A stretch of 63,887 nucleotides of DNA, the filler included, from Vicugna vicugna (lineage: Eukaryota), in assembly GCA_013265495.1 (NCBI GenBank). It is 79 parts of 74 records of this genome, joined end to end, with 100 filler letters (N's around TTAATTAATTAA, not from the genome) between each part and the next. Parts side by side here need not be neighbours in the genome. Positions count along the whole stretch, not along the records: positions 17,141 to 18,050 come from PNXW01014673.1; 78 more parts are not named here. One strand, 5' to 3'. The notes beneath the pieces are model-generated. The model ran no database searches, was not told the origin of the DNA, and saw nothing but the letters and a program-made list of their open reading frames with translations. Each line of letters starts with the position of its first letter. Position 1 is the stretch's first letter. This document shows, piece by piece, positions 5,768 to 57,517 of this stretch. The translations under genes and the position numbers were made by a program.

Positions 5768-7049
5768 ATTCTATATTCAAAATTCTATGTTCCGCATTCC
5801 ATGTTCTAAATTCTGTGTTGCATATTCTCATTATATATTCTATAATTTGTATTCTTCATTCTATAGTCTACATCCTATATTCTGCATTCTTTATTCTTGA
5901 TTCTATATTCTGTGTTCTACATTCTATTTTCTAAATTCGATATTCTATATTTTTTAATTTCGTATTCTTTATTCTATATTCTGTGTTCTACATTCTATAT
6001 TCTTAATTCTATATTCAGTATTTTTTAATTGTTTATTAAGTATTCTTTATACTATATTCTAATTTCTGTGTTCTGCTTTCCATGTTCTAAATTCTGGTTT
6101 CTATATTCTGTTTTCCATATTTTATATTCTGTGTTCTAAATTCTATATTCTGTATTCTATATTCTGCATGCCGTATTCTACATTATATATTCTGTGTTCT
6201 ACTTTCTATATTCTAAATTCTATATTCAGTATTCTGTATTCTATATTCTAAATTCTGTGTTTTCAATTCCATGTTCTATATACTCTATTGTATATCCTAT
6301 ATTCTGTGATCTAATTTCTATATTCAAAATTCTATATTCAGTATTCTGTATTCTATATTCTAAATTCTGTGTTCTTCATTCCATGTTCTCCATTCTATAT
6401 TCAGTATTCTGTATTCCATATTCTAAATTCTGTGTTCTGCATTCTATGTTCTAAATTCTAATATCAGTATACTATATTATATATTCTAATTACTGTGTTT
6501 TGCATTCCATGTTCTATATTCTGGGTTCTATAATCTATATTCTATATTCTATATCTGTGTTCTANNNNNNNNNNNNNNNNNNNNNNNNNNNNNNNNNNNN
6601 NNNNNNNNNNNNNNNNNNNNNNNNNNNNNNNNNNNNNNNNNNNNNNNNNNNNNNNNNNNNNNNNNNNNNNNNNNNNNNNNNNNNNNNNNNNNNNNNNNNN
6701 NNNNNNNNNNNNNNNNNNNNNNNNNNNNNNNNNNNNNNNNNNNNNNNNNNNNNNNNNNNNNNNNNNNNNNNNNNNNNNNNNNNNNNNNNNNNNNNNNNNN
6801 NNNNNNNNNNNNNNNNNNNNNNNNNNNNNNNNNNNNNNNNNNNNNNNNNNNNNNNNNNNNNNNNNNNNNNNNNNNNNNNNNNNNNNNNNNNNNNNNNNNN
6901 NNNNNNNNNNNNNNNNNNNNNNNNNNNNNNNNNNNNNNNNNNNNNNNNNNNNNNNNNNNNNNNNNNNNNNNNNNNNNNNGTATTTTATATTCTATTTTCT
7001 GAGTTCTACATTCAATATTTTAATTGTTTATTAAGTATTCTGTATTCTA
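5768..7049 (+). repeat. Satellite E: TTCnnnn heptamer satellite (TTCTATA/TTCTAAA/TTCTGTG/TTCTGCA/TTCCATG/TTCAGTA)
   Basis: 7-bp periodic TTC. The cattc(c/t)atg landmark lies at 6377, 6440 and 6503, a 63-bp spacing. Confidence 0.95.
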
Positions 7050-9819: not shown

Positions 9820-10630
9820 CAAGTGTTCGTGTGTGTGCTGTAGGTGTGAAAACAGACTACACGGGTCTTTATGTGGGCACAGGTGTTCCCAGGTTAGGAT
9901 GTAGTTTAAATACCTCCACAAACCATAGAGAGGTCATCGCAAATACTTGGTTTCGGAGCCCAAACAACACTGTCCACCGCACCCCCGAATAGGGTTTCTT
10001 AAAGGAAAGACAAGCAAAGGGATTCAATTAGAACCCAGGCGCTGCTGTCAGTTGGAGGAACTTCCCTGCACTCAGAATTCCAGAACAGATTCAGTGGGAG
10101 AGATGTGCAGCCCCACTCCACCCAGATGAATGGAAGAAAAGGTGTTCCGTTTAGAGAGAAGTCCTCTAAGTACTTCCTCAATGTATCAGGGGGCCCTCAC
10201 TGCTACTTCGACTCCGCACAACCCCCAGCTTTCCCTCTTGGCCTGGCCTAAAGGAACCCTCAGGGAACAGAAGCTAAGGGATACTTATAGAACCCAGGTG
10301 CTGCTGTCAGTTTGAGGAACCTCCCCAAACTCATAATACCAGAACAATTCTTCGTGTGTGTGCTTGATGTAGCTAAACAGCCAAAGCATTATTCTGGGGG
10401 GACATTTTTTCCATGGTTGTGGGTTGTAGGTTAAAAACCCACATCCAATGGATAGGNNNNNNNNNNNNNNNNNNNNNNNNNNNNNNNNNNNNNNNNNNNN
10501 NNNNNNNNNNNNNNNNNNNNNNNNNNAGACAAGCTAAGGTATTCTATTAGAACCCAGGCGCTGCTGTCATTTGGAGGTGCCTCCTCACAATGAGGATACC
10601 TGAGCACGTCTCCGTGTGTGTGCTGGAGGT
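9820..10630 (+). repeat. Satellite B, about 3 diverged monomers
   Basis: tagaacccagg(c/t)gctgctgtca at 10029, 10288 and 10548 (259-260 bp spacing; the last interval spans a gap). Confidence 0.9.
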
Positions 10631-10730: not shown

Positions 10731-11225
10731 TCTATATTCTAAATTCTGTGTTCTGCATTAAAAATTTTATATTCTATATTAAGTATCCTGTATTTTATAT
10801 TTTATATTCTGTGTTCTTCATTCTATATTCTAAATTCTGGATTCAGAATTCTTTATTCTAAATTCTAAATTCTGTGATCAGCATTCCATGTTCTAAATTC
10901 TGTGTTCTCTATTCTCTATTCTCTATTCTNNNNNNNNNNNNNNNNNNNNNNNNNNNNNNNNNNNNNNNNNNNNNNNNNNNNNNNNNNNNNNNNNNNNNNN
11001 NNNNNNNNNNNNNNNNNNNNNNNNNNNNNNNNNNNNNNNNNNNNNNNNNNNNNNNNNNNNNNNNNNNNNNNNNNNNNNNNNNNNNNNTGTTCTATATTGT
11101 ATTTTCAGTATTCTATATTCTATATTCTAAATTCTATGTTCTGCATTCCATTTTCTGAATTCTATATTTAGTCTTCTGAATTATACATTCTAAATTCTGT
11201 GTTTGCATTCCATGTTCTAAATTCT
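10731..11225 (+). repeat. Satellite E (heptamer)
   Basis: Same TTCnnnn units as 5768-7049. Confidence 0.95.
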
Positions 11226-12325: not shown

Positions 12326-13881
12326 TTCACCTAGCTTAAAGGGAACACAAAGATTCTTTTCAGTTGCAAATTTCACTAAATACAAATATATGGGGAGGTA
12401 CAAGCTCCAACTCGGTTTTACAGTGAAAACTGCAAGAAGTTCAAAACGGCACTAGGAAACAGACTGAGAAATCAGAGTATGTGTTTCTCCTGCAACCCGA
12501 TCCCTTTGTGCTGTATGAACGAACGTCTCTCCACATGCTCAGTTCTGAGAGATAAGTGTGTGTGAAAGCCGTCCTTCACCTAGCTTGAAGGGAACACAAA
12601 GTTTCTTTTCAGTTGCCAACTCCACTCCATNNNNNNNNNNNNNNNNNNNNNNNNNNNNNNNNNNNNNNNNNNNNNNNNNNNNNNNNNNNNNNNNNNNNNN
12701 NNNNNNNNNNNNNNNNNNNNNNNNNNNNNNNNNNNNNNNNNNNNNNNNNNNNNNNNNNNNNNNNNNNNNNNNNNNNNNNNNNNNNNNNNNNNNNNNNNNN
12801 NNNNNNNNNNNNNNNNNNNNNNNNNNNNNNNNNNNNNNNNNNNNNNNNNNNNNNNNNNNNNNNNNNNNNNNNNNNNNNNNNNNNNNNNNNNNNNNNNNNN
12901 NNNNNNNNNNNNNNNNNNNNNNNNNNNNNNNNNNNNNNNNNNNNNNNNNNNNNNNNNNNNNNNNNNNNNNNNNNNNNNNNNNNNNNNNNNNNNNNNNNNN
13001 NNNNNNNNNNNNNNNNNNNNNNNNNNNNNNNNNNNNNNNNNNNNNNNNNNNNNNNNNNNNNNNNNNNNNNNNNNNNNNNNNNNNNNNNNNNNNNNNNNNN
13101 NNNNNNNNNNNNNNNNNNNNNNNNNNNNNNNNNNNNNNNNNNNNNNNNNNNNNNNNNNNNNNNNNNNNNNNNNNNNNNNNNNNNNNNNNNNNNNNNNNNN
13201 NNNNNNNNNNNNNNNNNNNNNNNNNNNNNNNNNNNNNNNNNNNNNNNNNNNNNNNNNNNNNNNNNNATAAGTGTGTGTGAAAGCCCTCCTCAACCTAGCT
13301 TAAAGGGAACACAAAGTTTCTTTTCAGTTGCAAACTCCACTCCATAAATATATATGGGGAGGTAAAATCTTCAACTCCATTTTACAGTGAAAAAGCAGGA
13401 AATTCAAACTGGCACTAGGAAACAGACTAAGAAACCAGAGTAAGTGTTTCTCCTGCTACCCGTTCCCTTGGTGCTGGATGAACGATCGTTTCTCCACATG
13501 CTCAGTTCTGAGAGATAAGTGTGTGTGAAAGCCCTCCTCAACCTAGCTTAAAGGGAACACAAAGTTTCTTTTCAGTTGCAAACTCCACTCCATAAATATA
13601 TATGGGGAGGTAAAATCTTCAACTCCATTTTACAGTGAAAAAGCAGGAAATTCAAACTGGCACTAGGAAACAGACTAAGAAACCAGAGTAAGTGTTTCTC
13701 CTGCTACCCGTTCCCTTGGTGCTGGATGAACGATCGTTTCTCCACATGCTCAGTTCTGAGAGATAAGTGTGTGTGAAAGCCCTCCTCCACGCAGCTGAAA
13801 GGGAACAGTATGTTTCTTTTCATTTGCGTACTCCAATACATACATATATATGGGAAGGTACAAGCTCCAACTCGGTTTTAC
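12326..13881 (+). repeat. Satellite C: 248-bp monomer tandem array
   Basis: ataagtgtgtgtgaaagcc at 13267, 13515 and 13763, an exact 248-bp period. Confidence 0.95.
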
Positions 13882-13981: not shown

Positions 13982-15176
13982 GACATTAGGAAAATCCTCA
14001 GGGGAGAATAGCTTAGGCATTCCGTTTAAACGAACACGCTGCGAACCGTTGGTGGAATCTCCCCACGCTCAGGATTCCGGAACCATTCTCAGTGCGTGGG
14101 GAAGCTCGAGAGACAACTCCACGCAGCTCTCTTCAGTCACAGGTTTTCCCTGTNNNNNNNNNNNNNNNNNNNNNNNNNNNNNNNNNNNNNNNNNNNNNNN
14201 NNNNNNNNNNNNNNNNNNNNNNNNNNNNNNNNNNNNNNNNNNNNNNNNNNNNNNNNNNNNNNNNNNNNNNNNNNNNNNNNNNNNNNNNNNNNNNNNNNNN
14301 NNNNNNNNNNNNNNNNNNNNNNNNNNNNNNNNNNNNNNNNNNNNNNNNNNNNNNNNNNNNNNNNNNNNNNNNNNNNNNNNNNNNNNNNNNNNNNNNNNNN
14401 NNNNNNNNNNNNNNNNNNNNNNNNNNNNNNNNNNNNNNNNNNNNNNNNNNNNNNNNNNNNNNNNNNNNNNNNNNNNNNNNNNNNNNNNNNNNNNNNNNNN
14501 NNNNNNNNNNNNNNNNNNNNNNNNNNNNNNNNNNNNNNNNNNNNNNNNNNNNNNNNNNNNNNNNNNNNNNNNNNNNNNNNNNNNNNNNNNNNNNNNNNNN
14601 NNNNNNNNNNNNNNNNNNNNNNNNNNNNNNNNNNNNNNNNNNNNNNNNNNNNNNNNNNNNNNNNNNNNNNNNNNNNNNNNNNNNNNNNNNNNNNNNNNNN
14701 NNNNNNNNNNNNNNNNNNNNNNNNNNNNNNNNNNNNNNNNNNNNNNNNNNNNNNNNNNNNNNNNNNNNNNNNNNNNNNNNNNNNNNNNNNNNNNNNNNNN
14801 NNNNNNNNNNNNNNNNNNNNNNNNNNNNNNNNNNNNNNNNNNNNNNNNNNNNNNNNNNNNNNNNNNNNNNNNNNNNNNNNNNNNNNNNNNNNNNNNNNNN
14901 NNNNNNNNNNNNNNNNNNNNNNNNNNNNNNNNNNNNNNNNNNNNNNNNNNNNNNNNNNNNNNNNNNNNNNNNNNNNNNNNNNNNNNNNNNNNNNNNNNNN
15001 NNNNNNNNNNNNNNNNNNNNNNNNNNNNNNNNNNNNNNNNNNNNNNNNNNNNNNNNNNNNNNNNNNNNNNNNNNNNNNNNNNNNNNNNNNNNNNNNNNNN
15101 NNNNNNNNNNNNNNNNGTTGGTGGAACTTCACGACGCTCAGGATTCCGGAAACATTTTCAGTGCGTGGGGGAGCTC
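13982..15176 (+). repeat. Satellite A (267-bp) fragments flanking a gap
   Basis: Both ends match the monomer seen in 15277-16253. Confidence 0.92.
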
Positions 15177-15276
15177 NNNNNNNNNNNNNNNNNNNNNNNN
15201 NNNNNNNNNNNNNNNNNNNNTTAATTAATTAANNNNNNNNNNNNNNNNNNNNNNNNNNNNNNNNNNNNNNNNNNNN

Positions 15277-16253
15277 GAGACGAGCTTAGGCTTTCCGTTA
15301 GAACCCATGCGCTGCAGACCGGTGGTGGAAACTCTAAACGCTCAGGATTCCGGAACCATTGTCAGTGCGTGGGGGAGCTCGAGAGACAACTCCACGCAGC
15401 TCTCTTCAGTCACAGGTGTTCCCTGTTAGGGGAAGTCCGAGAAATACCTTCCCTGACAAGCCTCTGACACTGGGATATCTTGCAATCACCCTTAGCATTA
15501 CCTGGCACAGAGACATTAGGAAAACCCTCAGGGGAGAGCAGCTTAGGCATTCCGTTAGAACCCACGCGCTGCCGACCTTTGGTGCAACCTCCCCACACTC
15601 AGGATTCCGGAAACATTGTCAGTGCGTGGGGGAGCTCGAGAGACAACTCCACGGGACTCTCTTCAGTCACTGGTGTTCCCTGTTCGGGGAAGCCATAGAA
15701 ATATCTTCCCTGGCCTTGGGGAGGCAGCATCTGACACTGGGATATTCTGCAATCACCCCTAGCATTCCCTGGCACAGAGACATTAGGAAAACCCTCAGGG
15801 GAGACGAGCTTAGGCATTCCGTTAGAACCCACGCGCTGCCGACCGTTGGTGGAACCTCCCCACGCTCAGGATTTGGCAGCCGTTGTCAGTGCGTGGGGGA
15901 GCTCGAGAGGCAACTCCACGCTTCTCTTTTCAGTCCCTGGTCTTCCCCGTTCGGGGAAGTCCGAGAAATAACTTAACTGAATTTGGATAGGCAGCCTCTG
16001 TCACTGGGATATCCTGCAATCCCCCCTAGCTTTCCCTGGTACAGGGAAATAAGGAAAAGCCTCAGGGGAGACGAGCATAGGCATTCCATAAGAACCCTCA
16101 CGCTGCCGACCGTTTGTGGAACCTCCACACTCTCAGGATTCCGCAGACGTTGTCAGTGCATCGGGGACTTCGAGAGGCAAATCCACGCAGCTCCCTTCAG
16201 TCAAGGTTTTCCCTGTTCGGGGAAGTCCGCGAAATATCTTCCCTGACATTGGG
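15277..16253 (+). repeat. Satellite A: CpG-rich 267-bp monomer tandem array (candidate centromeric satellite)
   Basis: The gc(t/a)tagg landmark lies at 15284, 15541, 15808 and 16075. Spacings are 257 (10-bp deletion), 267 and 267. Confidence 0.96.
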
Positions 16254-17140: not shown

Positions 17141-18050
17141 TTCATCCACCAAACAAGGCATATATACCCTTTGAAATATTTACTCAGACTTCATAAGTTT
17201 TTTGTATCACTAGATTCTAAAATCGGACATTTGGCACTAGAAAACACTGTTTGAGCGAATTCTCACCAATACACATGTAATTTACATTGTTTACATAACC
17301 ATGGCATTCCGTATTCCGAACATGATTCATGCATCACGAATTTCTCAAATTGTATTTCTGAGCAGCGAACATGCAAATGACAGATGTTTCAACCACCAAA
17401 AAGTTTACCCACGCACTTTGAAATATTTACTTAGACTTCATTGCTTCTTCCTTTCACCAGTTTCAAGAATCACACTTTGACCCAAGAAAAACCCTCTTGG
17501 AGCGATTTCTACCCTAGAGATATGTAATTTGAATAGATTCCTTCAATATTCTATTCCGTGTTCCGTACATGCTACATGCATGACAGATTCGACAAACATG
17601 CATTCCTGAGTTGAGAGCATGTGTATTAGTGATCTTTCATCCTCTATATAATAAACAATATTTTTATTAAGACTCGTGTACCCATTTTCACAATCTTTTC
17701 CTAACACCAGATTCGAACTCGTGCATTTTTCTCAGAAAAATACTTCTGGAGCGATTTCCAACAAACAGATATGTAATTTACATGAATTCCATCAACAGGG
17801 GATTCCGGATTCTGTAAATGCTACATGAATGACCGATTCGGCAAACATGCATTTCTGAGTTGTGAGCTTATGTATTAGTGAACTTTCACCCACCAAAGAA
17901 GGCTTATATACACTTTAAAATATTTAAACTGACTTCATAAGTTTTTTGTATCACCAGGTTGTAAAATCGGACATTTGGCAGTAGAAAACACTCTTTGATC
18001 GAATGCTCACCAATAGACATGTAATTTACATTGTTTACATAACCATGGCA
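17141..18050 (-). repeat. Satellite D: 744-bp unit made of 3 diverged ~248-bp subunits (strand given relative to satellite C)
   Basis: aatcggacatttggca at 17221 and 17965 (744 bp apart). Internal tgtaattt landmark at 17276, 17523, 17772 and 18020 (247/249/248). Confidence 0.93.
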
Positions 18051-18150: not shown

Positions 18151-19459
18151 CATCACCTAGCTAGTTGGGAACACACACTTTCTTTTGAGTGGGAAAATAC
18201 ACAACAGACATAAACATGTGGAGACACTAGTTCCAACACGGTTTAACAGTGAGAACTGCAAGAACTTAAAACCGGCAATAAGAAACATACTTAGAAACGA
18301 GAGTAAGAGTTTCAACTTCAAACAATACCATTTATGTTAGATGAAGGAACGTCCCCCCACATNNNNNNNNNNNNNNNNNNNNNNNNNNNNNNNNNNNNNN
18401 NNNNNNNNNNNNNNNNNNNNNNNNNNNNNNNNNNNNNNNNNNNNNNNNNNNNNNNNNNNNNNNNNNNNNNNNNNNNNNNNNNNNNNNNNNNNNNNNNNNN
18501 NNNNNNNNNNNNNNNNNNNNNNNNNNNNNNNNNNNNNNNNNNNNNNNNNNNNNNNNNNNNNNNNNNNNNNNNNNNNNNNNNNNNNNNNNNNNNNNNNNNN
18601 NNNNNNNNNNNNNNNNNNNNNNNNNNNNNNNNNNNNNNNNNNNNNNNNNNNNNNNNNNNNNNNNNNNNNNNNNNNNNNNNNNNNNNNNNNNNNNNNNNNN
18701 NNNNNNNNNNNNNNNNNNNNNNNNNNNNCGGCTTTCACATTATCTCTCAGAACTGAGCAAGTGGAGAGACGTTCGTTCAACCAGCACAAAGGTAACGGGT
18801 TGTAGGAGAAACACTTAGACTGGGTTCTCAGTCTGTTTCCTAGTGCCGGGTTGAAGTTCCAGCAGTTTCCACTATAGAGTCGATTTGGAGCTAGTACCTA
18901 ACATATATATCTATTTAGATGAGTTTCCAACTGAAAAGAAACTTTCTATCCCCAACAAGCTAGGTTAAGTTCGTCTTTCACACACACTAAACTCTCAGAA
19001 TAGAGCAGGTAGAGACACGTTCGTTTATCTAGAAAAAAGGGAACCGGTGGCAGGAGAAAGACGTTCTCTGGTTTCGTAGTCTGTTTCCTAGTGGTGGTTT
19101 GAAGTTCCTGCAGTTTTCACTATAAAATAGCTTTGGAGCTTGTACCTCCCCATATATATGTATGTAGAAGAGTTTCCAACTGAAAAGGAACCTTACGTTC
19201 TCAACAAGCGATGAGAAGGAATGCTTTGACACACACTTTAATCTTATAACTAAGCAAGGGGAGAGACTTTCGTTCAGGTAGCACAAAGGAAACAGTTGGC
19301 AGTAGAAAACCTTACTCAGGTTTCTCAATCTGTTTCCTACTGCCGTTTGAATTTTCCTGCAGCATTCACTGAAAAACCGAGTTGGAACTTGTACCTCCAC
19401 AAATATATGCAGATAGAGGACATTGTAACTAAAAAGAAACTTGTTCTTCCATTGAAGCT
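18151..19459. repeat. Satellite C, diverged monomers, forward before the gap and reverse after it
   Basis: 18151-18362 is colinear with 12326 onward. 18729-19459 is reverse-complement, with tctgtttccta at 18832, 19080 and 19329. Confidence 0.9.
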
Positions 19460-20422: not shown

Positions 20423-20884
20423 GGAGGTTCCACCAACGGTTGGCAGCGCGTGGGTTCTATTGGAAAGCCTTAGCTCATCTCCCCTGAGTGTTTTCTAATG
20501 TCTCTGTGCCAGGGAATGCTAGGGGGGTTTGCAGGATATCCCAGTGACAGAGGCTGCCTCCCCAAGTTCAGGGAAGGTATTCCTCGGACTTCCCCTTACA
20601 GGGAACACCTGTGACTGAAGAGAGCTGCATGGAAGTGTCTCTCGAGTTCCCCCACGCACTGACAATTGTTCCGGAATCCTGAGCGTGGGGAGGTTCCACC
20701 AATGATCGGCAGCGCGTGGGTTCTAACGGAAAGCCTAAGCTCGCCTCCCCTGAGCGTTTTCCTAATATCTCTGTGCCAGGGAATGCTAGTGGGGTTTGCA
20801 GGATATCCCAGTGACAGAGGCTGCATTCGGACTTCCCCTAACAGGGAACACCTGTGATTGAAGAGAGCTGTGTGGATTTTTCTC
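20423..20884 (-). repeat. Satellite A (267-bp), reverse orientation
   Basis: Reverse complement of the monomer. The second unit has a ~25-bp deletion near 20825. Confidence 0.95.
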
Positions 20885-20984: not shown

Positions 20985-21952
20985 GCATGATTCCCGAATC
21001 CGTCATGCATGTAGCATGCACGGAACCCGAAGCCATGTTGTTGGTATTCATGTAAATTTCATATCTGTTAGGTGGAAATCGCTCCAGAACTATGTTTCTG
21101 TGAAAAAAGCACGAATTCGAAATTGGTGTTAGGGAAAGCTTGTGAAAATGTGTACAAGTGTCTAGATGATAATATTACTTTTATAGAGGATGACAAATTA
21201 GTAATCTAGATGCCCTCAACTCAGGAATATATGTTTGTCGAATCCGATATATACGTAGCATGCACGGAACAAGGAATATCATGTAGATGGAATCTATTCA
21301 AATTACATATCTCTAGGGTAGAATTCGGTCCAAGAGGGTTTTTCGGATATCTAAGAGTGATTCTTAAAACTGGTGATAGGAAGAAGCTACGAAGTCAAAG
21401 TCAATATTTCAAAGTNNNNNNNNNNNNNNNNNNNNNNNNNNNNNNNNNNNNNNNNNNNNNNNNNNNNNNNNNNNNNNNNNNNNNNNNNNNNNNNNNNNNN
21501 NNNNNNNNNNNNNNNNNNNNNNNNNNNNNNNNNNNNNNNNNNNNNTAAACAATGGACATGTGTATCGGTGAGAATTCACTCAAACAGAGTTTTCTGGTGC
21601 CAAATGTCCGATTTTAGAACCTGGTGATAGAAAAAACCTATGAAGTCAGAGTAAATATTTCTAAGCTAAGTCTANNNNNNNNNNNNNNNNNNNNNNNNNN
21701 NNNNNNNNNNNNNNNNNNNNNNNNNNNNNNNNNNNNNNNNNNNNNNNNNNNNNNNNNNNNNNNNNNNNNNNNNNNNNNNNNNNNNNNNNNNNNNNNNNNN
21801 NNNNNNNNNNNNNNNNNNNNNNNNNNAAAAGCACGAAATCTGGTGTTAGGGAAAGCTTGTGAAAATGTGTACACGTGTCTAGATGAAAATATTCCTTTTA
21901 TAGAGGATGAAAGATTAGTAATCCACATGCTCTCAACTCAGGAATGGAATGC
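20985..21952 (+). repeat. Satellite D
   Basis: Reverse complement of the 17141-18050 unit, e.g. tggtgttagggaaagcttgtgaaaatgtgtac occurs twice. Confidence 0.92.
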
Positions 21953-22052: not shown

Positions 22053-22868
22053 CATGTACGGAACCCGGAATGCCATGTTGTTGGAATTCATGTAAATTAC
22101 ATATTTGTAAGTTGGAAAACGCTCCAGAATTATATTTCTGTGAAAAAAGCAAGAATTCGAATCAGGTGTTACGGAAATTTGTGAAAATGTGTACATGTGA
22201 CTAGAGGAAAATATTCCTTTTATAGAGGATGAAAGATTGGAAATCCAGATGTCCTCAACTCAGGAATGTATCTTTGTCGAATCGAATATATATGTAGCAT
22301 GCACGGAACAAGGAATATCATGTAGATGGAATCTATTCAAATTACATATCTCTAGGGTAGAATTCGGTCCAAGAGGGTTTTTCTGATATCTAAGTGTGAT
22401 TCATAAAACTGGTGATAGGAAGAAGCTATGAAGTCAAAGTCAATATTTCAAAGTGCATAGGTAACTTGTTTGGTGCTTGAAACATCAGTCATGCGCATGT
22501 TCACAACTCAGAAATTCATGTTTGAGGAATCTGTGATGCATTAAACATGTTCGTAATACGGAATTCCATGGTTATGTAAACAATGGAAATAACATGTGTA
22601 TTGGTGAGAATTNNNNNNNNNNNNNNNNNNNNNNNNNNNNNNNNNNNNNNNNNNNNNNNNNNNNNNNNNNNNNNNNNNNNNNNNNNNNNNNNNNNNNNNN
22701 NNNNNNNNNNNNNNNNNNNNNNNNNNNNNNNNNNNNNNNNTGATTGCCGATCCCACATGTAGCATGTACGGAACCTGGAAAGCCATGTTGTTGGAATTCA
22801 TGTAAATTACATATCTGTTAGGTGGAAATCGCTCCAGAACAATGTTTCTGTGAAAAAAGCAAAGCACA
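22053..22868 (+). repeat. Satellite D
   Basis: Same unit. The segment around 22200-22455 is nearly identical to 21160-21415. Confidence 0.92.
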
Positions 22869-22968: not shown

Positions 22969-23220
22969 CACGGAATATCATAGATTGAATCTAATCAAAT
23001 TACAATTCTCTAGGGTAGAATTCTCTAAAAGAGGGTTTATCTGGGATCAAAGTTTGATGCTTGAACCTGGAGATAGGAAGAATCTACGAAGTAAAAGTCA
23101 ATATTTCTGAGTGCATAGGTAATTTGTTTGGTGCTTGAAACATCAGTCATTCGCATGTTCACAAATCAGAAATGTAAGTGTGAGGAATCCGTGATGCATG
23201 AAACATGTTCGTAATACGGA
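22969..23220 (+). repeat. Satellite D
   Basis: Matches 22310-22560. Confidence 0.9.
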
Positions 23221-25838: not shown

Positions 25839-26249
25839 TTTGATCCCAGAAAAACACTCTTGGAGCGAATTCTATCCTAGAGAGATTTAATTAGAATAGA
25901 TTCCATCTACATGATATTACATGTTCCTTACATGCTACATTCATGACGGATTTGACAAACATGCATTCCTGAGTTGAGAGCATGTGGATTACTAATCTTT
26001 CATCCTCTATAAAAGGAATATTTTCAGCTAGACTCGTGACACATTTTCACAAGCTTTCCCTAACACCAGTTTCGAATTCGTGGTTTTTTCACAGAAAAAT
26101 AGTTCTGGAGCGATTTCCACGTAATAGGTATGTAATTTACATGAATTCCATCAAATGAATTCCATCAACATGGCATTCCGGGTTCCTTACATGATACATA
26201 CATAACGTATTCGGCAATCATGCATTTCTGACTTGTGAGCATGTGGATT
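25839..26249 (-). repeat. Satellite D
   Basis: Colinear with 17477-17880. Contains a 14-bp tandem duplication at 26141-26168. Confidence 0.92.
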
Positions 26250-28520: not shown

Positions 28521-29655
28521 ACAGGTGTTCCCTTTTCGGGAAAGTCCGAGAAATAACTTCCCTGAGCTTGGGGAGTCTGCCTCTTTCACTGGGATATCCT
28601 GCAAACCCCCCTAGCATTCCCTGGCACAGAGACATTAGGAAAACCCTCAGGGGAGACGAGCTTAGGCATTCCGTTAGAACCCACGCGCTGCCGNNNNNNN
28701 NNNNNNNNNNNNNNNNNNNNNNNNNNNNNNNNNNNNNNNNNNNNNNNNNNNNNNNNNNNNNNNNNNNNNNNNNNNNNNNNNNNNNNNNNNNNNNNNNNNN
28801 NNNNNNNNNNNNNNNNNNNNNNNNNNNNNNNNNNNNNNNNNNNNNNNNNNNNNNNNNNNNNNNNNNNNNNNNNNNNNNNNNNNNNNNNNNNNNNNNNNNN
28901 NNNNNNNNNNNNNNNNNNNNNNNNNNNNNNNNNNNNNNNNNNNNNNNNNNNNNNNNNNNNNNNNNNNNNNNNNNNNNNNNNNNNNNNNNNNNNNNNNNNN
29001 NNNNNNNNNNNNNNNNNNNNNNNNNNNNNNNNNNNNNNNNNNNNNNNNNNNNNNNNNNNNNNNNNNNNNNNNNNNNNNNNNNNNNNNNNNNNNNNNNNNN
29101 NNNNNNNNNNNNNNNNNNNNNNNNNNNNNNNNNCCCCTAGCATTCCCTGGCACAGAGACATTAGGAAAACCCTCAGGGGAGACGAGCTTAGGCATTCCGT
29201 TAGAACACACGCGCTGCATACCGTTGGTGGAAGCTCCCCACGCTCCGTATTCCGAAAGCACTGTCAGTGCGTGGGGGAGCTCGAAAGACAACTCCACGCA
29301 GATCTCTTCACTCACAGGTGTTCCCTGTTCGGGGAAGTCCGAGAAATACCTTCCCTGACCTTGGGGAGGCAGCCTCTGTCACTGGGATATAACACCCCTA
29401 GCATTCCCAGGCACAGAGACATTAGGAAAACACTCAGGGGAGACGAGCTTAGGCATTCCGTTAGAACCCACACGCTGCCGAAAATTGGTTGAACCTCCCC
29501 ACGCTCAGGATTCCGGAACTATTGTCAGTGCTTGGGGAGCTCGAGAGAAAACTCCACGCAGCTCTCCTCAGTCACAGGTGTTCCCTGTTCGGGGAAGGCA
29601 AAGAAATACCACCCTGAACTTGGGGAGGCAGCCTCTGTCACTGGGATATCCTGCA
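28521..29655 (+). repeat. Satellite A (267-bp)
   Basis: Same monomer on both sides of a gap. Confidence 0.95.
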
Positions 29656-31436: not shown

Positions 31437-31919
31437 TTGGTGGAACCTCCCCACCCTCTGGATTCCGGAACCATTGTCAGTACGTGGGGGAGGTCGTGAG
31501 ACAACTCCACGGAGCTCTCTTCATTCACAGGTGCTCCCTGATCGGGGAAGTCCGAGAAATACCTTCCCTGACCTTGGGGAGGCAGCCTCTGTCACTGGGA
31601 TATCCTGCAAACCCCCCTAGCATTCCCTGGCACAGAGACATAAGGAAAACCCTCAGGGGAGATGAACCCACGGGCTGCCGACCGTTGGTGGAACTTTCCC
31701 ACGCTCAGGATTCCGGAACCATTTTCAGTGCGTGGGGGAGCTCGAGAGAAAACTGCTCGCAGCTCTCTTCAGTCACAGGTGTTCCCTGATCGGGGAAGTC
31801 CGAGAAATACCTTCCCTGACCTTGGGGAGGCAGCCTCTGTCACTGGGATACCTGCAAACTCCCCTAGCATTCCGTGGCACAGAGAAATTACGAAAAACCT
31901 CAGGGGAGACGAGCTTAGG
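31437..31919 (+). repeat. Satellite A (267-bp)
   Basis: Same monomer, with a ~20-bp deletion near 31663. Confidence 0.95.
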
Positions 31920-33888: not shown

Positions 33889-34735
33889 CTGGTGATAGAA
33901 AGAAGCTACGAAGTTGAAGTAAATATTTCAAAGCGCATAGGTAACTAGTGTGGTGTTTGAAAAATGAGTCATTCGCATGTTCACAACTCAGAAATGCATG
34001 TTTGAAAAATCCGTGATGCATGAAACATGTTCGGAATACGGAATGCCAAGGTTATTTAAACAATGTAAATTACATGTGTATTGTTGAGAATTCGCTCAAA
34101 GAGTTTTTTCTGGTGCCTAATGTCCTATTTNNNNNNNNNNNNNNNNNNNNNNNNNNNNNNNNNNNNNNNNNNNNNNNNNNNNNNNNNNNNNNNNNNNNNN
34201 NNNNNNNNNNNNNNNNNNNNNNNNNNNNNNNNNNNNNNNNNNNNNNNNNNNNNNNNNNNNNNNNNNNNNNNNNNNNNNNNNNNNNNNNNNNNNNNNNNNN
34301 NNNNNNNNNNNNNNNNNNNNNNNNNNNNNNNNNNNNNNNNNNNNNNNNNNNNNNNNNNNNNNNNNNNNNNNNNNNNNNNNNNNNNNNNNNNNNNNNNNNN
34401 NNNNNNNNNNNNNNNNNNNNNNNNNNNNNNNNNNNNNNNNNNNNNNNNNNNNNNNNNNNNNNNNNNNNNNNNNNNNNNNNNNNNNNNNNNNNNNNNNNNN
34501 NNNNNNNNNNNNNNNNNNNNNNNNNNNNNNNNNNNNNNNNNNNNNNNNNNNNNNNNNNNNGTGGAATCTTATTATATCTCTCTAGGGTAGAATTCACTCC
34601 AAGAGTGTTTTTCTGGGATCAAAGTTTTATTCTTGAAACTGATGATAGGAAGAAGCAATGAAGTCAAATTAAATATTTCAATGTACATATGTAAATTGTT
34701 TGGTGGTTGAAACATCAGTTATGCGCATGTTCACA
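33889..34735 (+). repeat. Satellite D
   Basis: Same unit on both sides of a gap. Confidence 0.92.
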
Positions 34736-34835: not shown

Positions 34836-35512
34836 TCTTCACTCCGCTCTTGGCAAACCATCAAGGAAGGCAAGCTAAGGTATTCTAGTAGAACCAAGGC
34901 ACTGCAGTCTTTTGGAGTAGTCTCTCCAAGCTCAGGATTCCAGAAAACTTATCCTTGTGTGTGCTGTTCGTGGAGAAACAGAGTCCACGCATATTCAATG
35001 GGGCACAGGTATTCCCTTGTTTGGTGTTGTTGGTTAAACACCTCCACTTCCCATGGAGAGACACTCACTTATACTTGAATTTAGAGCCCAAATCCCACTT
35101 TGAACCGCACTCCGGCTTATGCAATCCATCAGGGAAGAGAAGCTTAAGGATTCTACTAGAACAATATCACTGCTGTCAGTTGGAGGCAATTTCCCACTCT
35201 CAGGATTCTGGAAGCCAGAATTGTGGAGGGGGATTTGTGTATCCCCACTCAACTTAGTTGGATGTGGGCACAGGTGTTCCCCTTTAAGGAGAATTCATCT
35301 AAACTCTTCCTCAGTCCATCAGGGGGCAATCGCTACTATTTGGCCTCAAAACCCAAACCCCAGCTTTCCCTCAGAGCCAGGCCTTGGGAAACACTCAGGG
35401 ATACGGGGTTCTATTAGAACCCAAGCGCTGCTGTCACTTGAAAGTGTAGGCCCACACACAGGATACATGAAAAAGTCTTCGTGTGTGTGTTGGAAGTGGG
35501 GAAACAGAGTCC
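34836..35512 (+). repeat. Satellite B
   Basis: tagaac landmark at 34889, 35157 and 35415 (268 and 258 bp). Confidence 0.9.
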
Positions 35513-37711: not shown

Positions 37712-38216
37712 GAACCTCCCCACGCTCAGGATTCCGGAACGATTTTCAGTGCGTGGCTGAGCTCGAGAGACCAATCCACGCATTTCTTTTCAGTCACAGG
37801 TGTTCCCTGATCGGGAAAGCCCGATAAATACCTTCCCTGACCTTGGGGAGGCAGCTTCTGTCACTGGTATATCCTGCAAAACCCCGTAATTTCCCTGGCC
37901 CAGAGATATTAGGAAAACCCTCAGGGGAGACGAGCTTAGGCTTTCCGTTAGAACCCACGCTCTGCCTACAGTTGGTGGAACCTCCCCACGCTCAGGATTC
38001 CTTAACCATTGTAATTGCTTGGGGGATCTCGAGAGAAACTCCACGCAGCTCTCTTCAGTTACAGGTGTTCCCTGTTCGGGGAAGTCCGAGAAATACCTTC
38101 CCTGAACTTGGGGAGGCAGCCTCTGTCACTGGGATAGCCTTCTAACCCCCCTAGCAATCCCTGGCACAGACAAATTAGGAAAACACACAGGGGAGACGAG
38201 CTTAGGCTTTCCGTTA
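37712..38216 (+). repeat. Satellite A (267-bp)
   Basis: About two monomers. Confidence 0.95.
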
Positions 38217-38316: not shown

Positions 38317-38812
38317 TGACAGCAGCGCCTGTGTTGTAACTGAATCCCTTTGCTTGTCTTCACTGATGGTATGCCTAGGTGGGAGTTCGGGGGAAAGTGT
38401 GGTTTGGGATCCAAACCAAGTATTTGCGAGTACCTCTCTATGGTTAGTGGAGGTTTTTAAACTACATCCCTAACCTGGGAACTCCTCTGCCCACATATAT
38501 ACACGTGGACTCTGTTTCCAGACCTCCAGCACACACACGAACACTTGCACAGTTATCCTGAGAGTGGGCAGCCTCCTCCAATTGACAGCAGGGCCTGGGT
38601 TCTAATAAAATCGCTTAACTTGTCTTCCCTGTTTGGTTGCCTGATACGGAGTGCGGGGGAAAGTGGGAAGTGGGGGTTCTAAATCCAAGTATTAGCGAGT
38701 GCTTCTTCATGGGAAGTGGAGGATATTAACCAAAAACCCACATCCTGGGAACACCTGTGCTCCTTGTAAAATGCGTGGAATTTTTCCCCACCTCCAGCAC
38801 ACACATGAAGAA
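38317..38812 (-). repeat. Satellite B, reverse orientation
   Basis: tgacagcag.gcctg at 38317 and 38583 (266 bp). The reverse complement matches 9820-10050. Confidence 0.9.
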
Positions 38813-39801: not shown

Positions 39802-40707
39802 CTATATTCTAAATTCTATATCCAGTATTCTGTATTCTATATTCTGAATTCTGTGTTCTGCATTCCTTGTTCTAAATTATCAGTTGTGTATTCTGTTTTC
39901 CTTATTCTATGTTCTGTGTTCTACATTCTATATTCTGTATTCTATATTATGCATTCCTTATTCTTTATTCTCTATTCTCTCTTCTACATTCTATATTTCA
40001 AATTTTATACTCTGTGTTCCATATTATATATTCTATATTCTGTATTCTACATTCTATATTCTAAATTATATATTCTAAATATACAGTATTCTATATTATA
40101 TACTCTAAATTGTGTGTTCTGCATTCCATGTTCTAAATTCTGTGTTCTATTTTCTTTATTCTATATTCTATATTCTGTGTTTTTCATTGTATTTTCGAAA
40201 TTCTATTTTCTTTATTCTGTATTCTATATTCGAATTTCTGTGTTCTGCATTCCATGTTATAAATTATTTATGCATTATATTGTATTCTATATTCTAAATT
40301 CTGTGTTCTTCATTCCATGTTCTAAATCTATATTCAGTATTCTGTATTCTGTATTCTAAATTCTGTTTTCTGCATTCCATGTTCTAAATCTATATTGAGT
40401 ATTCTGTATTCTATATTCTTAATACTGTGTTCTGCATTCCATGTTCTAAATTCTGTTTTCTGTATTCTGTATTCCATATTGTATATTCTGTGTTCTAAAT
40501 TCTATATTCTAAATTGTATACTCAGTATTCCTTATTCTTTATTCTATATTCTGTGTTCTACAGTTATTTTCTAAATTCTTTATTCAGTATTCTGTATTCT
40601 TTATTCTAAATTCTGTGTTCTGCATCCCATGTCTTAATTCTGTGTTCTATATTCTCTATTCTATATTCTTTATTTTGTGTTCTTCATTTTATATTCTAAA
40701 TTCTATA
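39802..40707 (+). repeat. Satellite E (heptamer)
   Basis: cattccatg at 40311, 40373 and 40435 (62-bp spacing). Confidence 0.95.
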
Positions 40708-40807: not shown

Positions 40808-41276
40808 GAAGCTACGAAGTCAAAATAAATATTTCAGAGTGCATAGCTAACTGTTTTCTTGGTAAAAACAGCAGTCATACTCATGTTCACAACTCAGAAA
40901 TGCATGTTTGAGGAATCCGTGATGCATGAATCATGTTCGGAATACGGAATGCCATGGTTATGTAAACAATGTAAATTAAATGTGTTTTGGTCAGAATTCA
41001 CTCAAAGAGTGTTTTCTGGTGCCAAATGACGGATTTTAGAACCTGGTGAAACCTGGTGTTAGAAAAAAACTATGAAGTCTGAGTAAATATTTCTAAGTCT
41101 ATATACACCTTCTTTTGTGGCAGAAAGGTCAGTAATACACATGCTCACAAGCCAGAAACACATGATTGCCGAATCCGTCATGCATGTAGCATGTATGGAA
41201 CCCTGAGTGCCATGTTGTTGGGATTCATGTCAATTACATATTTGTCAGGTGGAAATAGCTCCAGAATAATTTTTCT
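40808..41276 (+). repeat. Satellite D
   Basis: Same unit, with a 10-bp duplication at 41040-41059. Confidence 0.92.
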
Positions 41277-42164: not shown

Positions 42165-42576
42165 TCAAAAGGACCATCGGTTGCATTTACTGCTGGAGGA
42201 ACCGAAGGAATTTCCTTAACATCTGGATGAGTAGGAGCAGAGGGCTCAATATTTTCTATTTTTACAGTATCAAATTTCTCTCCCTCAGTGGCTGGGTCAA
42301 GGCAATCTCTAATTTGTTGCCACAAAGGAAGAATAGTATCCGGCATTTTATTCGGACCATTAGCAGTATAATAGTCTCTCAAACGAACTCCAACAACCTT
42401 CCAAGTTTCTAAGTTAATAGTACCTTGCTCTGGAAACCAAGGACAAATTTCTTCTACAAAAACCAAGAATTGTTCTAAACGTTGTTTCGAGACCTGAATT
42501 CCTCTTTCTCTTAACATTACTCTAAGCATTTGTACAAACAATCCTTTGCTAATCCTTTGCTATGATTTTGCCCCAT
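42165..42576 (-). pseudogene. gag: Betaretroviral (class II ERV) gag: matrix domain and PSAP late-domain region, frameshifted after codon 8
   Basis: ATG GGG at 42576 (myristoylation Gly2). Removing one copy of an 11-bp duplication gives MGQNHSKGLFVQMLRVMLRERGIQVSKQRLEQFLVFVEEICPWFPEQGTINLETWKVVG...IRDCLD...EPSAP. CPWFPxxGT is the betaretroviral MA signature. Confidence 0.93.
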
Positions 42577-42680
42577 ACTCTCAAAATACTCTCCCCGCGA
42601 GAATTTACTTCTACCTTTCCAATATGGAGCTCCTAGTTCCTATCGCGGCGGTCACTGCAGCAGCCTTTTGCAGATTTCAG

Positions 42681-42698
42681 GTCCCTGTTCGGGCGCCA
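42681..42698 (-). promoter_or_regulatory. Retroviral primer-binding site for tRNA-Lys3
   Basis: The minus strand reads TGGCGCCCGAACAGGGAC (18/18 Lys3 PBS), 2 nt after an LTR end ...GGCACCGACA (CA terminus at 42701). Confidence 0.95.
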
Positions 42699-42811
42699 CT
42701 TGTCGGTGCCANNNNNNNNNNNNNNNNNNNNNNNNNNNNNNNNNNNNNNNNNNNNTTAATTAATTAANNNNNNNNNNNNNNNNNNNNNNNNNNNNNNNNN
42801 NNNNNNNNNNN

Positions 42812-43914
42812 GTTACAGTGCAAACCGAAGGAACTTCAAACCGGCACTAGGAAACACGTTGAGAAACCAGAGTATATGTTTATCCTGCAACCCGTTCCCT
42901 TTGTGCTGGATGAACGAACGTCTCTCCACATGCTCAGTTCGGAGAGAAAAGTGTGTGTGAAAGCCGTCCTTCACCTAGCTTGAAGGGAACACAAAGTTTC
43001 TTNNNNNNNNNNNNNNNNNNNNNNNNNNNNNNNNNNNNNNNNNNNNNNNNNNNNNNNNNNNNNNNNNNNNNNNNNNNNNNNNNNNNNNNNNNNNNNNNNN
43101 NNNNNNNNNNNNNNNNNNNNNNNNNNNNNNNNNNNNNNNNNNNNNNNNNNNNNNNNNNNNNNNNNNNNNNNNNNNNNNNNNNNNNNNNNNNNNNNNNNNN
43201 NNNNNNNNNNNNNNNNNNNNNNNNNNNNNNNNNNNNNNNNNNNNNNNNNNNNNNNNNNNNNNNNNNNNNNNNNNNNNNNNNNNNNNNNNNNNNNNNNNNN
43301 NNNNNNNNNNNNNNNNNNNNNNNNNNNNNNNNNNNNNNNNNNNNNNNNNNNNNNNNNNNNNNNNNNNNNNNNNNNNNNNNNNNNNNNNNNNNNNNNNNNN
43401 NNNNNNNNNNNNNNNNNNNNNNNNNNNNNNNNNNNNNNNNNNNNNNNNNNNNNNNNNNNNNNNNNNNNNNNNNNNNNNNNNNNNNNNNNNNNNNNNNNNN
43501 NNNNNNNNNNNNNNNNNNNNNNNNNNNNNNNNNNNNNNNNNNNNNNNNNNNNNNNNNNNNNNNNNNNNNNNNNNNNNNNNNNNNNNNNNNNNNNNNNNNN
43601 NNNNNNNNNNNNNNNNNNNNNNNNNNNNNNNNNNNNNNNNNNNNNNNNNNNNNNNNNNNNNNNNNNNNNNNNNNNNNNNNNNNNNNNNNNNNNNNNNNNN
43701 NNNNNNNNNNNNNNNNNNNNNNNNNNNNNNNNNACAAAGATTCTATTCAGTTGCAAACTCCAGTCATTACATATATATGAAGAGGAACAAACTTCAACAC
43801 GGTTTTACAGTGCAAACCGCAGGAACTTCCAACCGGCACTAGGAAACAGACTGAGAAACCAGAGGAAGAGTTTCTTCTGCAACCCGTTCCCTTAGTGCTG
43901 GATGAACGAACGTC
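42812..43914 (+). repeat. Satellite C (248-bp)
   Basis: Both ends match the monomer at 13267-13514. Confidence 0.93.
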
Positions 43915-44014: not shown

Positions 44015-44917
44015 AACTCGGTTTTACAGAGCAAACTGCAGGAACTACAAACCGGCACTCGGAAACAGTTTGAGAAACCAGAGTAAGTGTTTCTCCGGCA
44101 ACCCGTTTTCTTTGTGCTGGATGAACGAACGTCTCTACACATGCTCAGTTCTGAGAGATAAGTGTGTGTTAAAGCCCTACGTCACCTAACTTGAAGGGAA
44201 CACAAAGTTTCTTTACAGTTGCAAACTCCACATCATACATATATATCGGGAGGTATAAGCTCCAACTCNNNNNNNNNNNNNNNNNNNNNNNNNNNNNNNN
44301 NNNNNNNNNNNNNNNNNNNNNNNNNNNNNNNNNNNNNNNNNNNNNNNNNNNNNNNNNNNNNNNNNNNNNNNNNNNNNNNNNNNNNNNNNNNNNNNNNNNN
44401 NNNNNNNNNNNNNNNNNNNNNNNNNNNNNNNNNNNNNNNNNNNNNNNNNNNNNNNNNNNNNNNNNNNNNNNNNNNNNNNNNNNNNNNNNNNNNNNNNNNN
44501 NNNNNNNNNNNNNNNNNNNNNNNNNNNNNNNNNNNNNNNNNNNNNNNNNNNNNNNNNNNNNNNNNNNNNNNNNNNNNNNNNNNNNNNNNNNNNNNNNNNN
44601 NNNNNNNNNNNNNNNNNNNNNNNNNNNNNNNNNNNNNNNNNNNNNNNNNNNNNNNNNNNNNNNNNNNNNNNNNNNNNNNNNNNNNNNNNNNNNNNNNNNN
44701 NNNNNNNNNNNNNNNNNNNNNNNNNNNNNNNNNNNNNNNNNNNNNNNNNNNNNNNNNNNNNNNNNNNNNNNNNNNNNNNNNNNNNNNNNNNNNNNNNNNN
44801 NNNNNNNNNNNNNNNNNNNNNNNNNNNNNNNNNNNNNNNNNNNNNNNNNNNNNNNCTTTGTGCTTGATGAAAGAAAGTTTCTCCACATGCTCAGTTCTGA
44901 GAGATATGTGTGTGTGA
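44015..44917 (+). repeat. Satellite C (248-bp)
   Basis: One full monomer plus a fragment after the gap. Confidence 0.93.
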
Positions 44918-46032: not shown

Positions 46033-47120
46033 TTGATCCCAGAAAAACCCTCTTGGAGCGAATTTTATCCTAGAGATCTGTAATTTGAATACATTCCATC
46101 TACATGGTATTCCCTGATCCGTACATGCTACATACATGACGGATTCGACAAATATACATTCCTGAGTTGAGGTCACCTGGATTACTAATCTTTCCTCCTC
46201 TGTAAAGTAATATTTTCATCTAGACACGTGTACACATTTTCACAAGCTTTCCCTAAAACCAGGTTCCAATTCGTGCATTTTTCACAAAAAAATATTTCTG
46301 GAGCGATTTCCACCTAATAGGTATGTAATATAAACAGATATGTAATTTACATGTATTCCAACAACATGGCATTCCGGGTTCCGTACATGCTACATGTATG
46401 ACGGATTTGGCAATCATGCATTTCTGACTTGTGAGCATGTGGATTACAGACCTTTCACCCTCCGAACAAGGCGTATATAGACTTAGAAATATTTACTCTG
46501 ACTTCATAGGTTTTTCCTATCACCAGGTTCTAAAATCGGACATTTGGCACCAGAAAACACTCTTTGAGCGAATTCTCACCAATACACATGTAATTTACAT
46601 TGTTTACATAACCATGGCATTCCGTATTACGAACATGTTTCATGCATCACGGATTCCTCAAACTTGAATTTCTGAGTTGTGAACATGCACATGACTGATG
46701 TTTCAACCACCAAAAAAGTTACCATTGCACTCTGAAATATTTACATTGACTTTGTACCTTCTTCCTATCACCAGTTTCAAGAATCAAAATTTGATCCCAG
46801 AAAAACCCTCTTGGAGTGAATTCTTCCTTAGACATATGTAATTTGAATAGATTCCATCTAAATGTTATTCCGTGTTCCTTACATGCTACATACATNNNNN
46901 NNNNNNNNNNNNNNNNNNNNNNNNNNNNNNNNNNNNNNNNNNNNNNNNNNNNNNNNNNNNNNNNNNNNNNNNNNNNNNNNNNNNNNNNNNNNNNNNNNNN
47001 NNNNNNNNNNNNNNNNNNNNNNNNNNNNNNNNNNTCGTGAATTTAGAAAAAGAGTTCTGGAACGATTTCCTCCTTACAGATATGTAATTTACATGAGTTC
47101 CATCAACATGGCATTCCGGG
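46033..47120 (-). repeat. Satellite D
   Basis: ttgatcccagaaaaaccctcttggag at 46033 and 46791 (758 bp, including a short duplication near 46322-46345). Confidence 0.93.
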
Positions 47121-50525: not shown

Positions 50526-51897
50526 CGCTCGAGAACAATTTTTCTGTGAAAAATGCATGAATTCGAACTTCGTGTTATGGAAAGCTTGTGAAAACGTGTA
50601 AACGTGTCCAGATGAAAATATTCCTTTTACAGAGGATGAAAGATTAGTAATCCACATGCTCTCAACTCAGGAATGCATGTTTGTCAAATCAGTAATGTAT
50701 GTAGCATATAATGAAAACGGATTATCATGTAGATGGAATGTATTCAAATTACATATCTCTAGGTTANNNNNNNNNNNNNNNNNNNNNNNNNNNNNNNNNN
50801 NNNNNNNNNNNNNNNNNNNNNNNNNNNNNNNNNNNNNNNNNNNNNNNNNNNNNNNNNNNNNNNNNNNNNNNNNNNNNNNNNNNNNNNNNNNNNNNNNNNN
50901 NNNNNNNNNNNNNNNNNNNNNNNNNNNNNNNNNNNNNNNNNNNNNNNNNNNNNNNNNNNNNNNNNNNNNNNNNNNNNNNNNNNNNNNNNNNNNNNNNNNN
51001 NNNNNNNNNNNNNNNNNNNNNNNNNNNNNNNNNNNNNNNNNNNNNNNNNNNNNNNNNNNNNNNNNNNNNNNNNNNNNNNNNNNNNNNNNNNNNNNNNNNN
51101 NNNNNNNNNNNNNNNNNNNNNNNNNNNNNNNNNNNNNNNNNNNNNNNNNNNNNNNNNNNNNNNNNNNNNNNNNNNNNNNNNNNNNNNNNNNNNNNNNNNN
51201 NNNNNNNNNNNNNNNNNNNNNNNNNNNNNNNNNNNNNNNNNNNNNNNNNNNNNNNNNNNNNNNNNNNNNNNNNNNNNNNNNNNNNNNNNNNNNNNNNNNN
51301 NNNNNNNNNNNNNNNNNNNNNNNNNNNNNNNNNNNNNNNNNNNNNNNNNNNNNNNNNNNNNNNNNNNNNNNNNNNNNNNNNNNNNNNNNNNNNNNNNNNN
51401 NNNNNNNNNNNNNNNNNNNNNNNNNNNNNNNNNNNNNNNNNNNNNNNNNNNNNNNNNNNNNNNNNNNNNNNNNNNNNNNNNNNNNNNNNNNNNNNNNNNN
51501 NNNNNNNNNNNNNNNNNNNNNNNNNNNNNNNNNNNNNNNNNNNNNNNNNNNNNNNNNNNNNNNNNNNNNNNNNNNNNNNNNNNNNNNNNNNNNNNNNNNN
51601 NNNNNNNNNNNNNNNNNNNNNNNNNNNNNNNNNNNNNNNNNNNNNNNNNNNNNNNNNNNNNNNNNNNNNNNNNNNNNNNNNNNNNNNNNNNNNNNNNNNN
51701 NNNNNNNNNNNNNNNNNNNNNNNNNNTTCGTAATACGGAATGCCATGGTTATGTAAACAATGCAAATTACATGTGTATTGGTGAGATTTAGCTCAAAGAG
51801 TGTTTTCTAGTGCCAAATGTCCGATTTTAGACCCTGGTGATAGAAAAAACAGTGAAGTGCGAGGAAATATTTCTAAGCCTATATACACCTTGTTTGG
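50526..51897 (+). repeat. Satellite D
   Basis: Both ends match the unit. Confidence 0.92.
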
Positions 51898-56824: not shown

Positions 56825-57517
56825 GTCATGAGCATGTTCACAACTCAGAAATTCAAGTTTGCGAAATCCATGATGTATGAATCATTTTCATAATACGGAA
56901 TGCCATGGTTATGTAAACAATGTAAATTACATGTGTATTTGTGAGAATTCGCTCAAAGAGAGTTTTCTGGGGCCAGATGTCCGATTTTAGAACCTGGTGA
57001 TAGAAAAATCTATGAATTCAGAGTAAATAATTCTAAGTGTATATACGCCTTGTTCGGAGGGTGAAAGTTCTGTAATATACATGCTCACAAGTCAGAAACG
57101 CATGATTGCCAAATCCGTCATACATGTAGTATGTACGGAACCCGGAATGCCATGTTATTAGAATACATGTAAATTACAATAGAAATCGTTAAAGATCTAT
57201 TTTTCTGTGAAAAATTCACGAATTCGAACCTGGTGTTAGGGAAAGCTTGTGAAAATGTGTACATGTGTCCAGATGAAAATATTCCTTTTATAGAGGATGA
57301 AAGATTAGTAATCCACATGCTCTCAACTCAGGAATGCATGTTTGTCAAATCCGTCATGTATGTAGCATGTAAGGAACACGGAATATCATGTAGATGGAAT
57401 CTATTCAAATTATATATCTCTAGGGTAGAATTCGCTCCAAGATTGTTTTTGTTGGATCAAACTGTGATTCTTAAACTGGTGATATTAAGAAACTACGAAG
57501 TCAAAGTAAATATTTCA
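56825..57517 (+). repeat. Satellite D, nearly one full trimer
   Basis: Subunit landmark catg(t/c)tc(a/t)caa(c/g)tcag at 56833, 57080 and 57316. Confidence 0.93.

Follow-up and report, generated by a model that had tools for sequence, protein, structure and literature searches.

Family D, a satellite of 741–744 bp in the genome of Vicugna vicugna, is built of three homologous subunits that follow one another in a fixed order, and these subunits are homologous to the 248-bp monomers of a second satellite, family C. We propose that D is very probably an old satellite frozen as a trimer, that it split from the monomeric lineage of C, and that it would now form an older layer of heterochromatin, not the active centromere. 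The families were delineated in a window (the whole stretch of DNA that was analysed, 63,887 nucleotides) of 79 scaffolds of 142–1556 bp each, many of them with internal gaps, which was split at 78 identical spacers. BLAST clustering of the 79 scaffolds assigns 10 to D, 7 to family A, 6 to a 7-bp repeat, 5 to family B and 4 to C, and the initial annotation had counted D and C correctly; at low stringency A and B merge, and C and D stay apart. The units are 267 bp (A), 248 bp (C) and, in the consensus, 741 bp (D) long, with GC contents of 58%, 45.6% and 38%, respectively. D accounts for 12.6% of the non-N bases of the window versus 5.5% for C, unplaced scaffolds being a biased sample of the satellite families. 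Table 1 gives the scaffolds of both families.

Table 1. Scaffolds of families C and D in the window, and the parts of D scaffold S20.
Feature	Position	Strand	Evidence
C scaffold S16, 248-bp monomers	12326..13881	- (relative to D and published llama unit)	
C scaffold S21, diverged monomers, two contigs on opposite strands	18151..19459	.	
C scaffold S53	42812..43914	-	
C scaffold S54	44015..44917	-	
D scaffold S20, 1.2 trimer units	17141..18050	+	self-match, subunit assignment
S20 D3 subunit, 3' half	17141..17272	+	92% to D3 consensus
S20 D1 subunit, 247 bp	17273..17519	+	91%
S20 D2 subunit, 249 bp (consensus 246 bp); nearest to C	17520..17768	+	alignment, distances
S20 D3 subunit, 248 bp	17769..18016	+	90%
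S20 start of next D1	18017..18050	+	subunit assignment
D scaffold S24	20985..21952	-	
D scaffold S25	22053..22868	-	
D scaffold S26	22969..23220	-	
D scaffold S30	25839..26249	+	
D scaffold S41	33889..34735	-	
D scaffold S50	40808..41276	-	
D scaffold S56, exceeds one full unit	46033..47120	+	
D scaffold S62	50526..51897	-	
D scaffold S70; the alignment from 57312 in the initial annotation falls in its D2	56825..57517	-	

How is the D unit built? Compared with itself, S20 is 90.4% identical over 166 bp at an offset of 744, and S56 (46033–46895) is 87.6% identical over 105 bp at an offset of 758, owing to an insertion in D2. At shorter offsets the ungapped self-identity of S20 is 41.6% at 247, 39.6% at 249, 39.9% at 496 and 47.9% at 497, against a background of 27.3 ± 2.4% for offsets 20–699; the off-diagonals at 247/249 and 496/497 are thus present and stand above the background. 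The initial annotation had placed subunit landmarks at 17276, 17523, 17772 and 18020, and each of them does start with TGTAATTT, at spacings of 247, 249 and 248, so that the S20 unit can be written as 744 = 247+249+248. The D consensus, drawn from 10 scaffolds and 16 contigs, is 741 = 247+246+248 bp. The subunits, which we call D1, D2 and D3, are 246–249 bp long and share global identities of 67–76% (169/252, 190/249 and 185/250 for the three pairs; z 17–25). Since shuffled pairs are already 46–49% identical, and shuffled subunit pairs still reach 48–49% in global alignment, the scores are a better measure than the raw identities: they are 196–281 for the three pairs versus maxima of 44–51 in 500 dinucleotide shuffles per pair, with none of the 500 coming near.

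The order of the subunits is equally regular. Every D segment of at least 60 bp (29 of 29) has its best match in the subunit expected from the order D1-D2-D3, and this order is found at all 14 junctions that could be scored, that is, those with both flanks of at least 60 bp, shorter D segments being left out of the counts. A midpoint-rooted tree without outgroup, built from the 21 monomers that reach 200 bp (four D1, seven D2, four D3 and six C), has one clade for each type, with bootstrap values of 100 (D1), 88 (D2), 96 (D3) and 100 (C). In the multiple alignment, copies of the same D subunit are 86% identical and different subunits 60–68%. D therefore has three properties of a higher-order repeat (HOR), namely homologous subunits, a unit identity above the monomer identity, and a fixed order, and the junctions, the segments and the three subunit clades together support the reading of D as a fixed trimer. 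The longest D stretches cover 1.2 units, in two of the 10 scaffolds, and so the word "fixed" rests on the 14 junctions and on short reads. D copies diverge from the D consensus by 7.6%, and private insertions of about 10–17 bp in the D2 or D3 of D copies (46076–46337, 26128–26249 and 40984–41241) make the length of the unit vary, as in the 758 bp of S56.

Several observations concern the fine structure of the monomers. No smaller sub-repeat was found within the 248-bp unit, shuffled sequences reaching the same score in 138 of 200 cases for C and in 137 of 200 for the D majority sequence. In the comparison of 17560–17635 with 17809–17884, D2 and D3 are 85–90% alike in their 5' halves and 61–67% in their 3' halves, which hints at conversion between subunits; D1 and D3 are about 80% alike in the 3' half. 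Windows along the alignment hint that D3 is a mosaic of D2 and D1, but a breakpoint test gives p=0.07 and we reject the mosaic. The C consensus (12326–13881) has weak self-complementarity (6 of 200 shuffles are as high), of which D and A have none. Finally, the monomers of S21 (18151–19459) are 72% alike and its contigs are opposed, either by an inversion in an old layer of C or by mis-scaffolding.

Family C leads to the centromere literature. The entry for Lama glama in Melters et al. 2013 (PMC4053949) gives a candidate centromere repeat of 248 nt with 45% GC that makes up 2.9% of the genome; for this entry, which lists the 248-bp unit only, HORs are "not found". It is the tandem repeat with the highest abundance reported for the llama, and this abundance, not CENP-A data, is the ground for its status as a candidate. 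C is like this repeat in length, in GC content and in two motifs of 19–22 nt which, with 0–2 mismatches, have seven matches each in the window, all of them in C scaffolds, and none in 100 shuffles. By these two motifs, with the remainder of the unit compared by eye, C matches the published llama repeat, an equivalence given in the supplements of PMC4053949 that the initial annotation had missed. D differs from the llama repeat in its 38% GC and in being 56–59% identical to C.

What, then, is the relationship of D to C? Aligned end to end, the C consensus matches D1, D2 and D3 at 144/256, 148/250 and 149/255 positions (z 9.0, 13.7 and 11.8), or 56–59% over the whole monomer where shuffles give 46%. 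A local test free of rotation gives 87.5, 132.5 and 107.5 for the same three comparisons and 33–42.5 on the wrong strand; the best of 300 shuffles reach 48, 51 and 57.5. Similarly, a profile made from C only finds 8 of the 10 D scaffolds at E<=1 (seven at E<0.01) and a profile made from D only finds all four C scaffolds, and neither finds any of the 65 other scaffolds. The alignment of D from 57312 with C from 12530 that had been offered for a common origin is genuine (64 of 104 columns); the three motifs quoted with it are present in D and C, and in D they follow in the same order. All three subunits lie above shuffled controls, with z of 9–14, and as far as sequence can tell the homology of C and D over the whole monomer is secure. 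The relative orientation of C and D carries no meaning, because they lie on separate unplaced scaffolds.

The distances set a limit on this kinship. Copies of one subunit type lie at a Jukes-Cantor (JC) distance of 0.16 and C monomers at 0.22; between subunit types the distance is 0.43–0.57, and from C to D 0.77–0.92. The distance from C to the D subunits is thus about double that from one subunit to another, and the D subunits lie neither within nor close to the diversity of C monomers. Judged by these distances, D is not a trimer of the C satellite but of an old relative of C, and C and D are sister families. Of the proposal that the 744-bp unit is a trimer of the 248-bp satellite, the shared ancestor of about 248 bp stands, and C as the building block does not. 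Among the subunits C is nearest to D2, both by identity (59% versus 56% and 58%; 47–52% for raw C and D copies in the multiple alignment) and by JC distance (0.77 versus 0.92 and 0.86 to the other two), and the monomer tree joins it to D2's branch with a bootstrap value of 99 (either alternative has AU p=0.03). With no outgroup, this position would be explained if D2 diverged before the other subunits or, with less probability, if C escaped from D2 and evolved fast. In the latter case C would be the younger family, a D2-like subunit that left the trimer, turned monomeric, changed rapidly and came to occupy the centromeres, a course of events that the attachment to D2 favours and that we nevertheless consider rather unlikely. 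The stem of C is 0.49 substitutions per site long and that of D2 0.08, so an escape needs a roughly six-fold difference in rate; moreover, at sites with one odd subunit C agrees with the pair 49 times, with the odd one 17 times and with neither 24 times, as an outgroup would, in a count that leaves alignment bias uncontrolled.

We propose instead that an ancestral camelid satellite of about 248 bp would have given rise to two lineages. One would have stayed monomeric and be represented by the present C, and the other would have come to amplify as a block of three adjacent, already diverged monomers, D1, D2 and D3. As established satellite theory would have it, unequal crossing-over and gene conversion would, after a divergence of 25–35%, pair like with like only, 741–744 bp apart, and this restriction on pairing would have locked in the trimer and let it spread to tens of thousands of copies.

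Sequencing reads bear on the abundance of D. It is present in 19 of 22 indexed sequencing runs, in an index that covers eight studies and four organism codes, and reads were mapped on D in four of the 22 runs, one for each organism code containing D. In the raw Hi-C run X22, 129,840 of 12,836,656 reads (1.0%) match one D copy at 80% likeness, and D makes up 0.71% of the bases read. For an assumed genome of 2.1–3.25 Gb this corresponds to about 20,000–49,000 units (15–37 Mb), a rough estimate from one restriction-digest Hi-C run that has many partial fits and no single-copy control. Joints going back by 745 bp occur in all four mapped runs. Run X22 also has a back-joint of 495 bp in 630 reads and a skip of 496 bp in 145 reads, and we considered a dimer variant of D. 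This candidate was rejected: the fit of ordinary D3 copies to the D2 stretch of S20 equals or exceeds their fit to its D3 stretch (66 versus 65 of 74 for the consensus, and likewise in the three window copies tested), and for this reason the 495-bp joint is discarded as evidence of a dimer.

Does D carry the active centromere? The rate of transitions in D copies is 0.090 at CpG (42 positions) versus 0.040 at other G/C, and in C it is 0.040 at CpG (12 positions) versus 0.060 at other G/C, with no excess. The excess in D, which is small, mildly suggests methylated heterochromatin. We suggest that D would belong to the methylated heterochromatin of pericentromeres or short arms and represent an older layer of the centromeric family, and that it probably does not carry the active centromere. 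It could be argued that D is an active centromeric HOR on some chromosomes and C on others, as in human alpha satellite, given that D is homologous to the candidate centromere repeat C and is abundant both in the reads and in the window, whose unplaced scaffolds are a biased sample in this regard. We find this quite unlikely. Active HOR arrays in humans show much greater uniformity than D, whose copies of one subunit are 86% identical and of whose 129,840 reads in X22 only 243 are at least 99% alike to the S20 copy. Furthermore, no full CENP-B box is found in the C, D or A consensus, the best site in D having one mismatch, and the centromeric role of C is itself a prediction from abundance only.

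The window contains further repeats. A is a monomeric 267-bp satellite, 90–95% identical to its consensus, on scaffolds at 13982–16253, 20423–20884, 28521–29655, 31437–31919, 37712–38216 and 62769–63317; it is possibly the NOR-associated SAC-SAT, a satellite with a 267-bp unit. A homology of A and B to C and D was also considered and is not convincing: 13 of 500 shuffles score as high as A versus C, and 288–409 of 500 as high as A versus D1–D3, the A scaffolds do not match the C or D profiles, and the likeness is thus marginal or absent in shuffle tests and absent in profile searches. The B scaffolds (1621–2100, 9820–10630, 34836–35512, 38317–38812 and 56244–56724) hold a diverged relative of the A unit. 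Degenerate 7-bp satellite of the ATTCTAT type lies at 5768–7049, 10731–11225, 39802–40707, 52905–53463, 61850–62668 and 63418–63887, with longer periods of 21–63 bp in some arrays. The minus strand of 42165–42711 resembles, by eye, the beginning of a gag (matrix) gene of betaretrovirus-like type from an endogenous retrovirus, and an Rfam scan of the window gave no matches.

B pieces are 60–71% identical to A, and among themselves they fall into two classes of identity, 81–85% for the same subunit and about 60–78%, as a multi-subunit repeat would, with off-register matches at 60–73%. B contains an exact 23-mer of the published VpaSat16, which is listed at 1863 bp, or about 7 × 266; VpaSat14 (1864 bp) and VpaSat15 (3718 bp) are listed at similar or doubled lengths, and the main text of that paper mentions no sub-structure of the VpaSat units (PMC13751797). 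The suggestion that A and B form a parallel system of monomer and higher-order repeat thus finds agreement in the identities, but the order of B is not readable in the window. It is tempting to connect the two systems through nucleosomes. A lattice might have favoured the trimer, 744 being 4 × 186 and three the smallest fitting multiple of 248, and the same rule would cover B and VpaSat16, whose 1863 bp is about 10 × 186; the arithmetic holds for any shared repeat length of 185.25–187.25 bp. We regard this as very unlikely to be the explanation. The idea is post hoc, and the seven-subunit order of B that it needs is the one that the window does not let us read. Among 20 harmonics of D, that at k=4 comes 16th for GC, 16th for WW and 19th for A-tracts; for copy divergence it comes third. 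Because 6 of 49 pairs of orders could be explained likewise, and D lacks a four-fold compositional signal, the lattice is a long shot. We would attach just as little weight to its widest form, in which camelids would keep two pairs of monomer and multimer, 248 with 3 × 248 and 267 with about 7 × 266, each multimer being the smallest fit to a lattice of about 186 bp and D a former centromere layer with four nucleosomes per unit; were it true, chromatin spacing would choose the order of an HOR.

The chance that composition, alignment or assembly has produced the sub-period of D, or its likeness to C, as an artefact is practically negligible, even if raw identities flatter, given alignment scores 9–25 SD above shuffles, rotation-free scores well beyond those of shuffles and of the wrong strand, C and D profiles that matched only each other, and the recovery of D in every mapped run.

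How does D compare with known systems? Primate alpha-satellite HORs are like D in their ordered monomer types and in a unit identity above that of the monomers; D is far less homogeneous than active human arrays and lacks a full CENP-B box, and we claim no sequence relationship between them. The closest precedent for D is the 343-bp alpha satellite of New World monkeys, in which, according to Melters et al. 2013, the 171-bp monomer is fixed as a dimer (PMC4053949). D differs in being a trimer of unrelated camelid sequence and in sharing its genome with a monomeric relative; the repeat that dominates in the monkeys is the dimer (PMC4053949). Within the camelids, the alpaca satellites VpaSat01–16 have listed units of 1.8–8.5 kb and come from a study that targeted non-centromeric loci (PMC13751797). 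The window has, besides the VpaSat16 motif in B, a published VpaSat08 primer, matched exactly at 58136–58155 (no match in 100 shuffles), inside a piece (57948–58721) of the VpaSat08/09 short-arm satellite family of about 5.3 kb. The figures "744" and "248" are absent from the text of that paper, and six D and C motifs have no match in the first 400 letters of each VpaSat consensus (PMC13751797). Two other reports describe extensive and variable centromeric heterochromatin in the alpaca (PMC9547437, PMC6598621).

The D consensus contains four EcoRI sites and C none. For this reason D could be the satellite named "EcoRI-Sat". It may have been detected long ago as restriction bands, abundant restriction-defined camelid satellites being attributed to Vidal-Rioja et al. 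1987/1994 where PMC13751797 cites them. In the literature searched, Repbase and Dfam lying outside the search, there is no description of a camelid satellite of 741–744 bp or of its link to the 248-bp repeat; D may already be recorded in the work on SAC-SAT/VicPac4 or that of Vidal-Rioja, in the 2025 cytogenetics review, in Repbase or in Dfam. We conclude that D is real and abundant, and probably an undescribed satellite derived from a trimer. The expectation of an undescribed structure holds at most for the family D, the kind being common, with HORs in 76 of 171 species as tallied in Melters et al. 2013 (PMC4053949).

D changes no principle, as multimers that turn into new units are well documented. 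The centromeric and heterochromatic satellites of camelids are nearly uncatalogued, the 2026 alpaca survey having set centromeric loci aside (PMC13751797), and D, at about 0.7–1% of the genome and kin to a candidate centromere repeat, offers a probe and an annotation entry for telomere-to-telomere camelid assemblies. Finally, D and C provide an example, outside the primates, of a monomer that coexists with its frozen trimer, and thereby make centromere succession testable.
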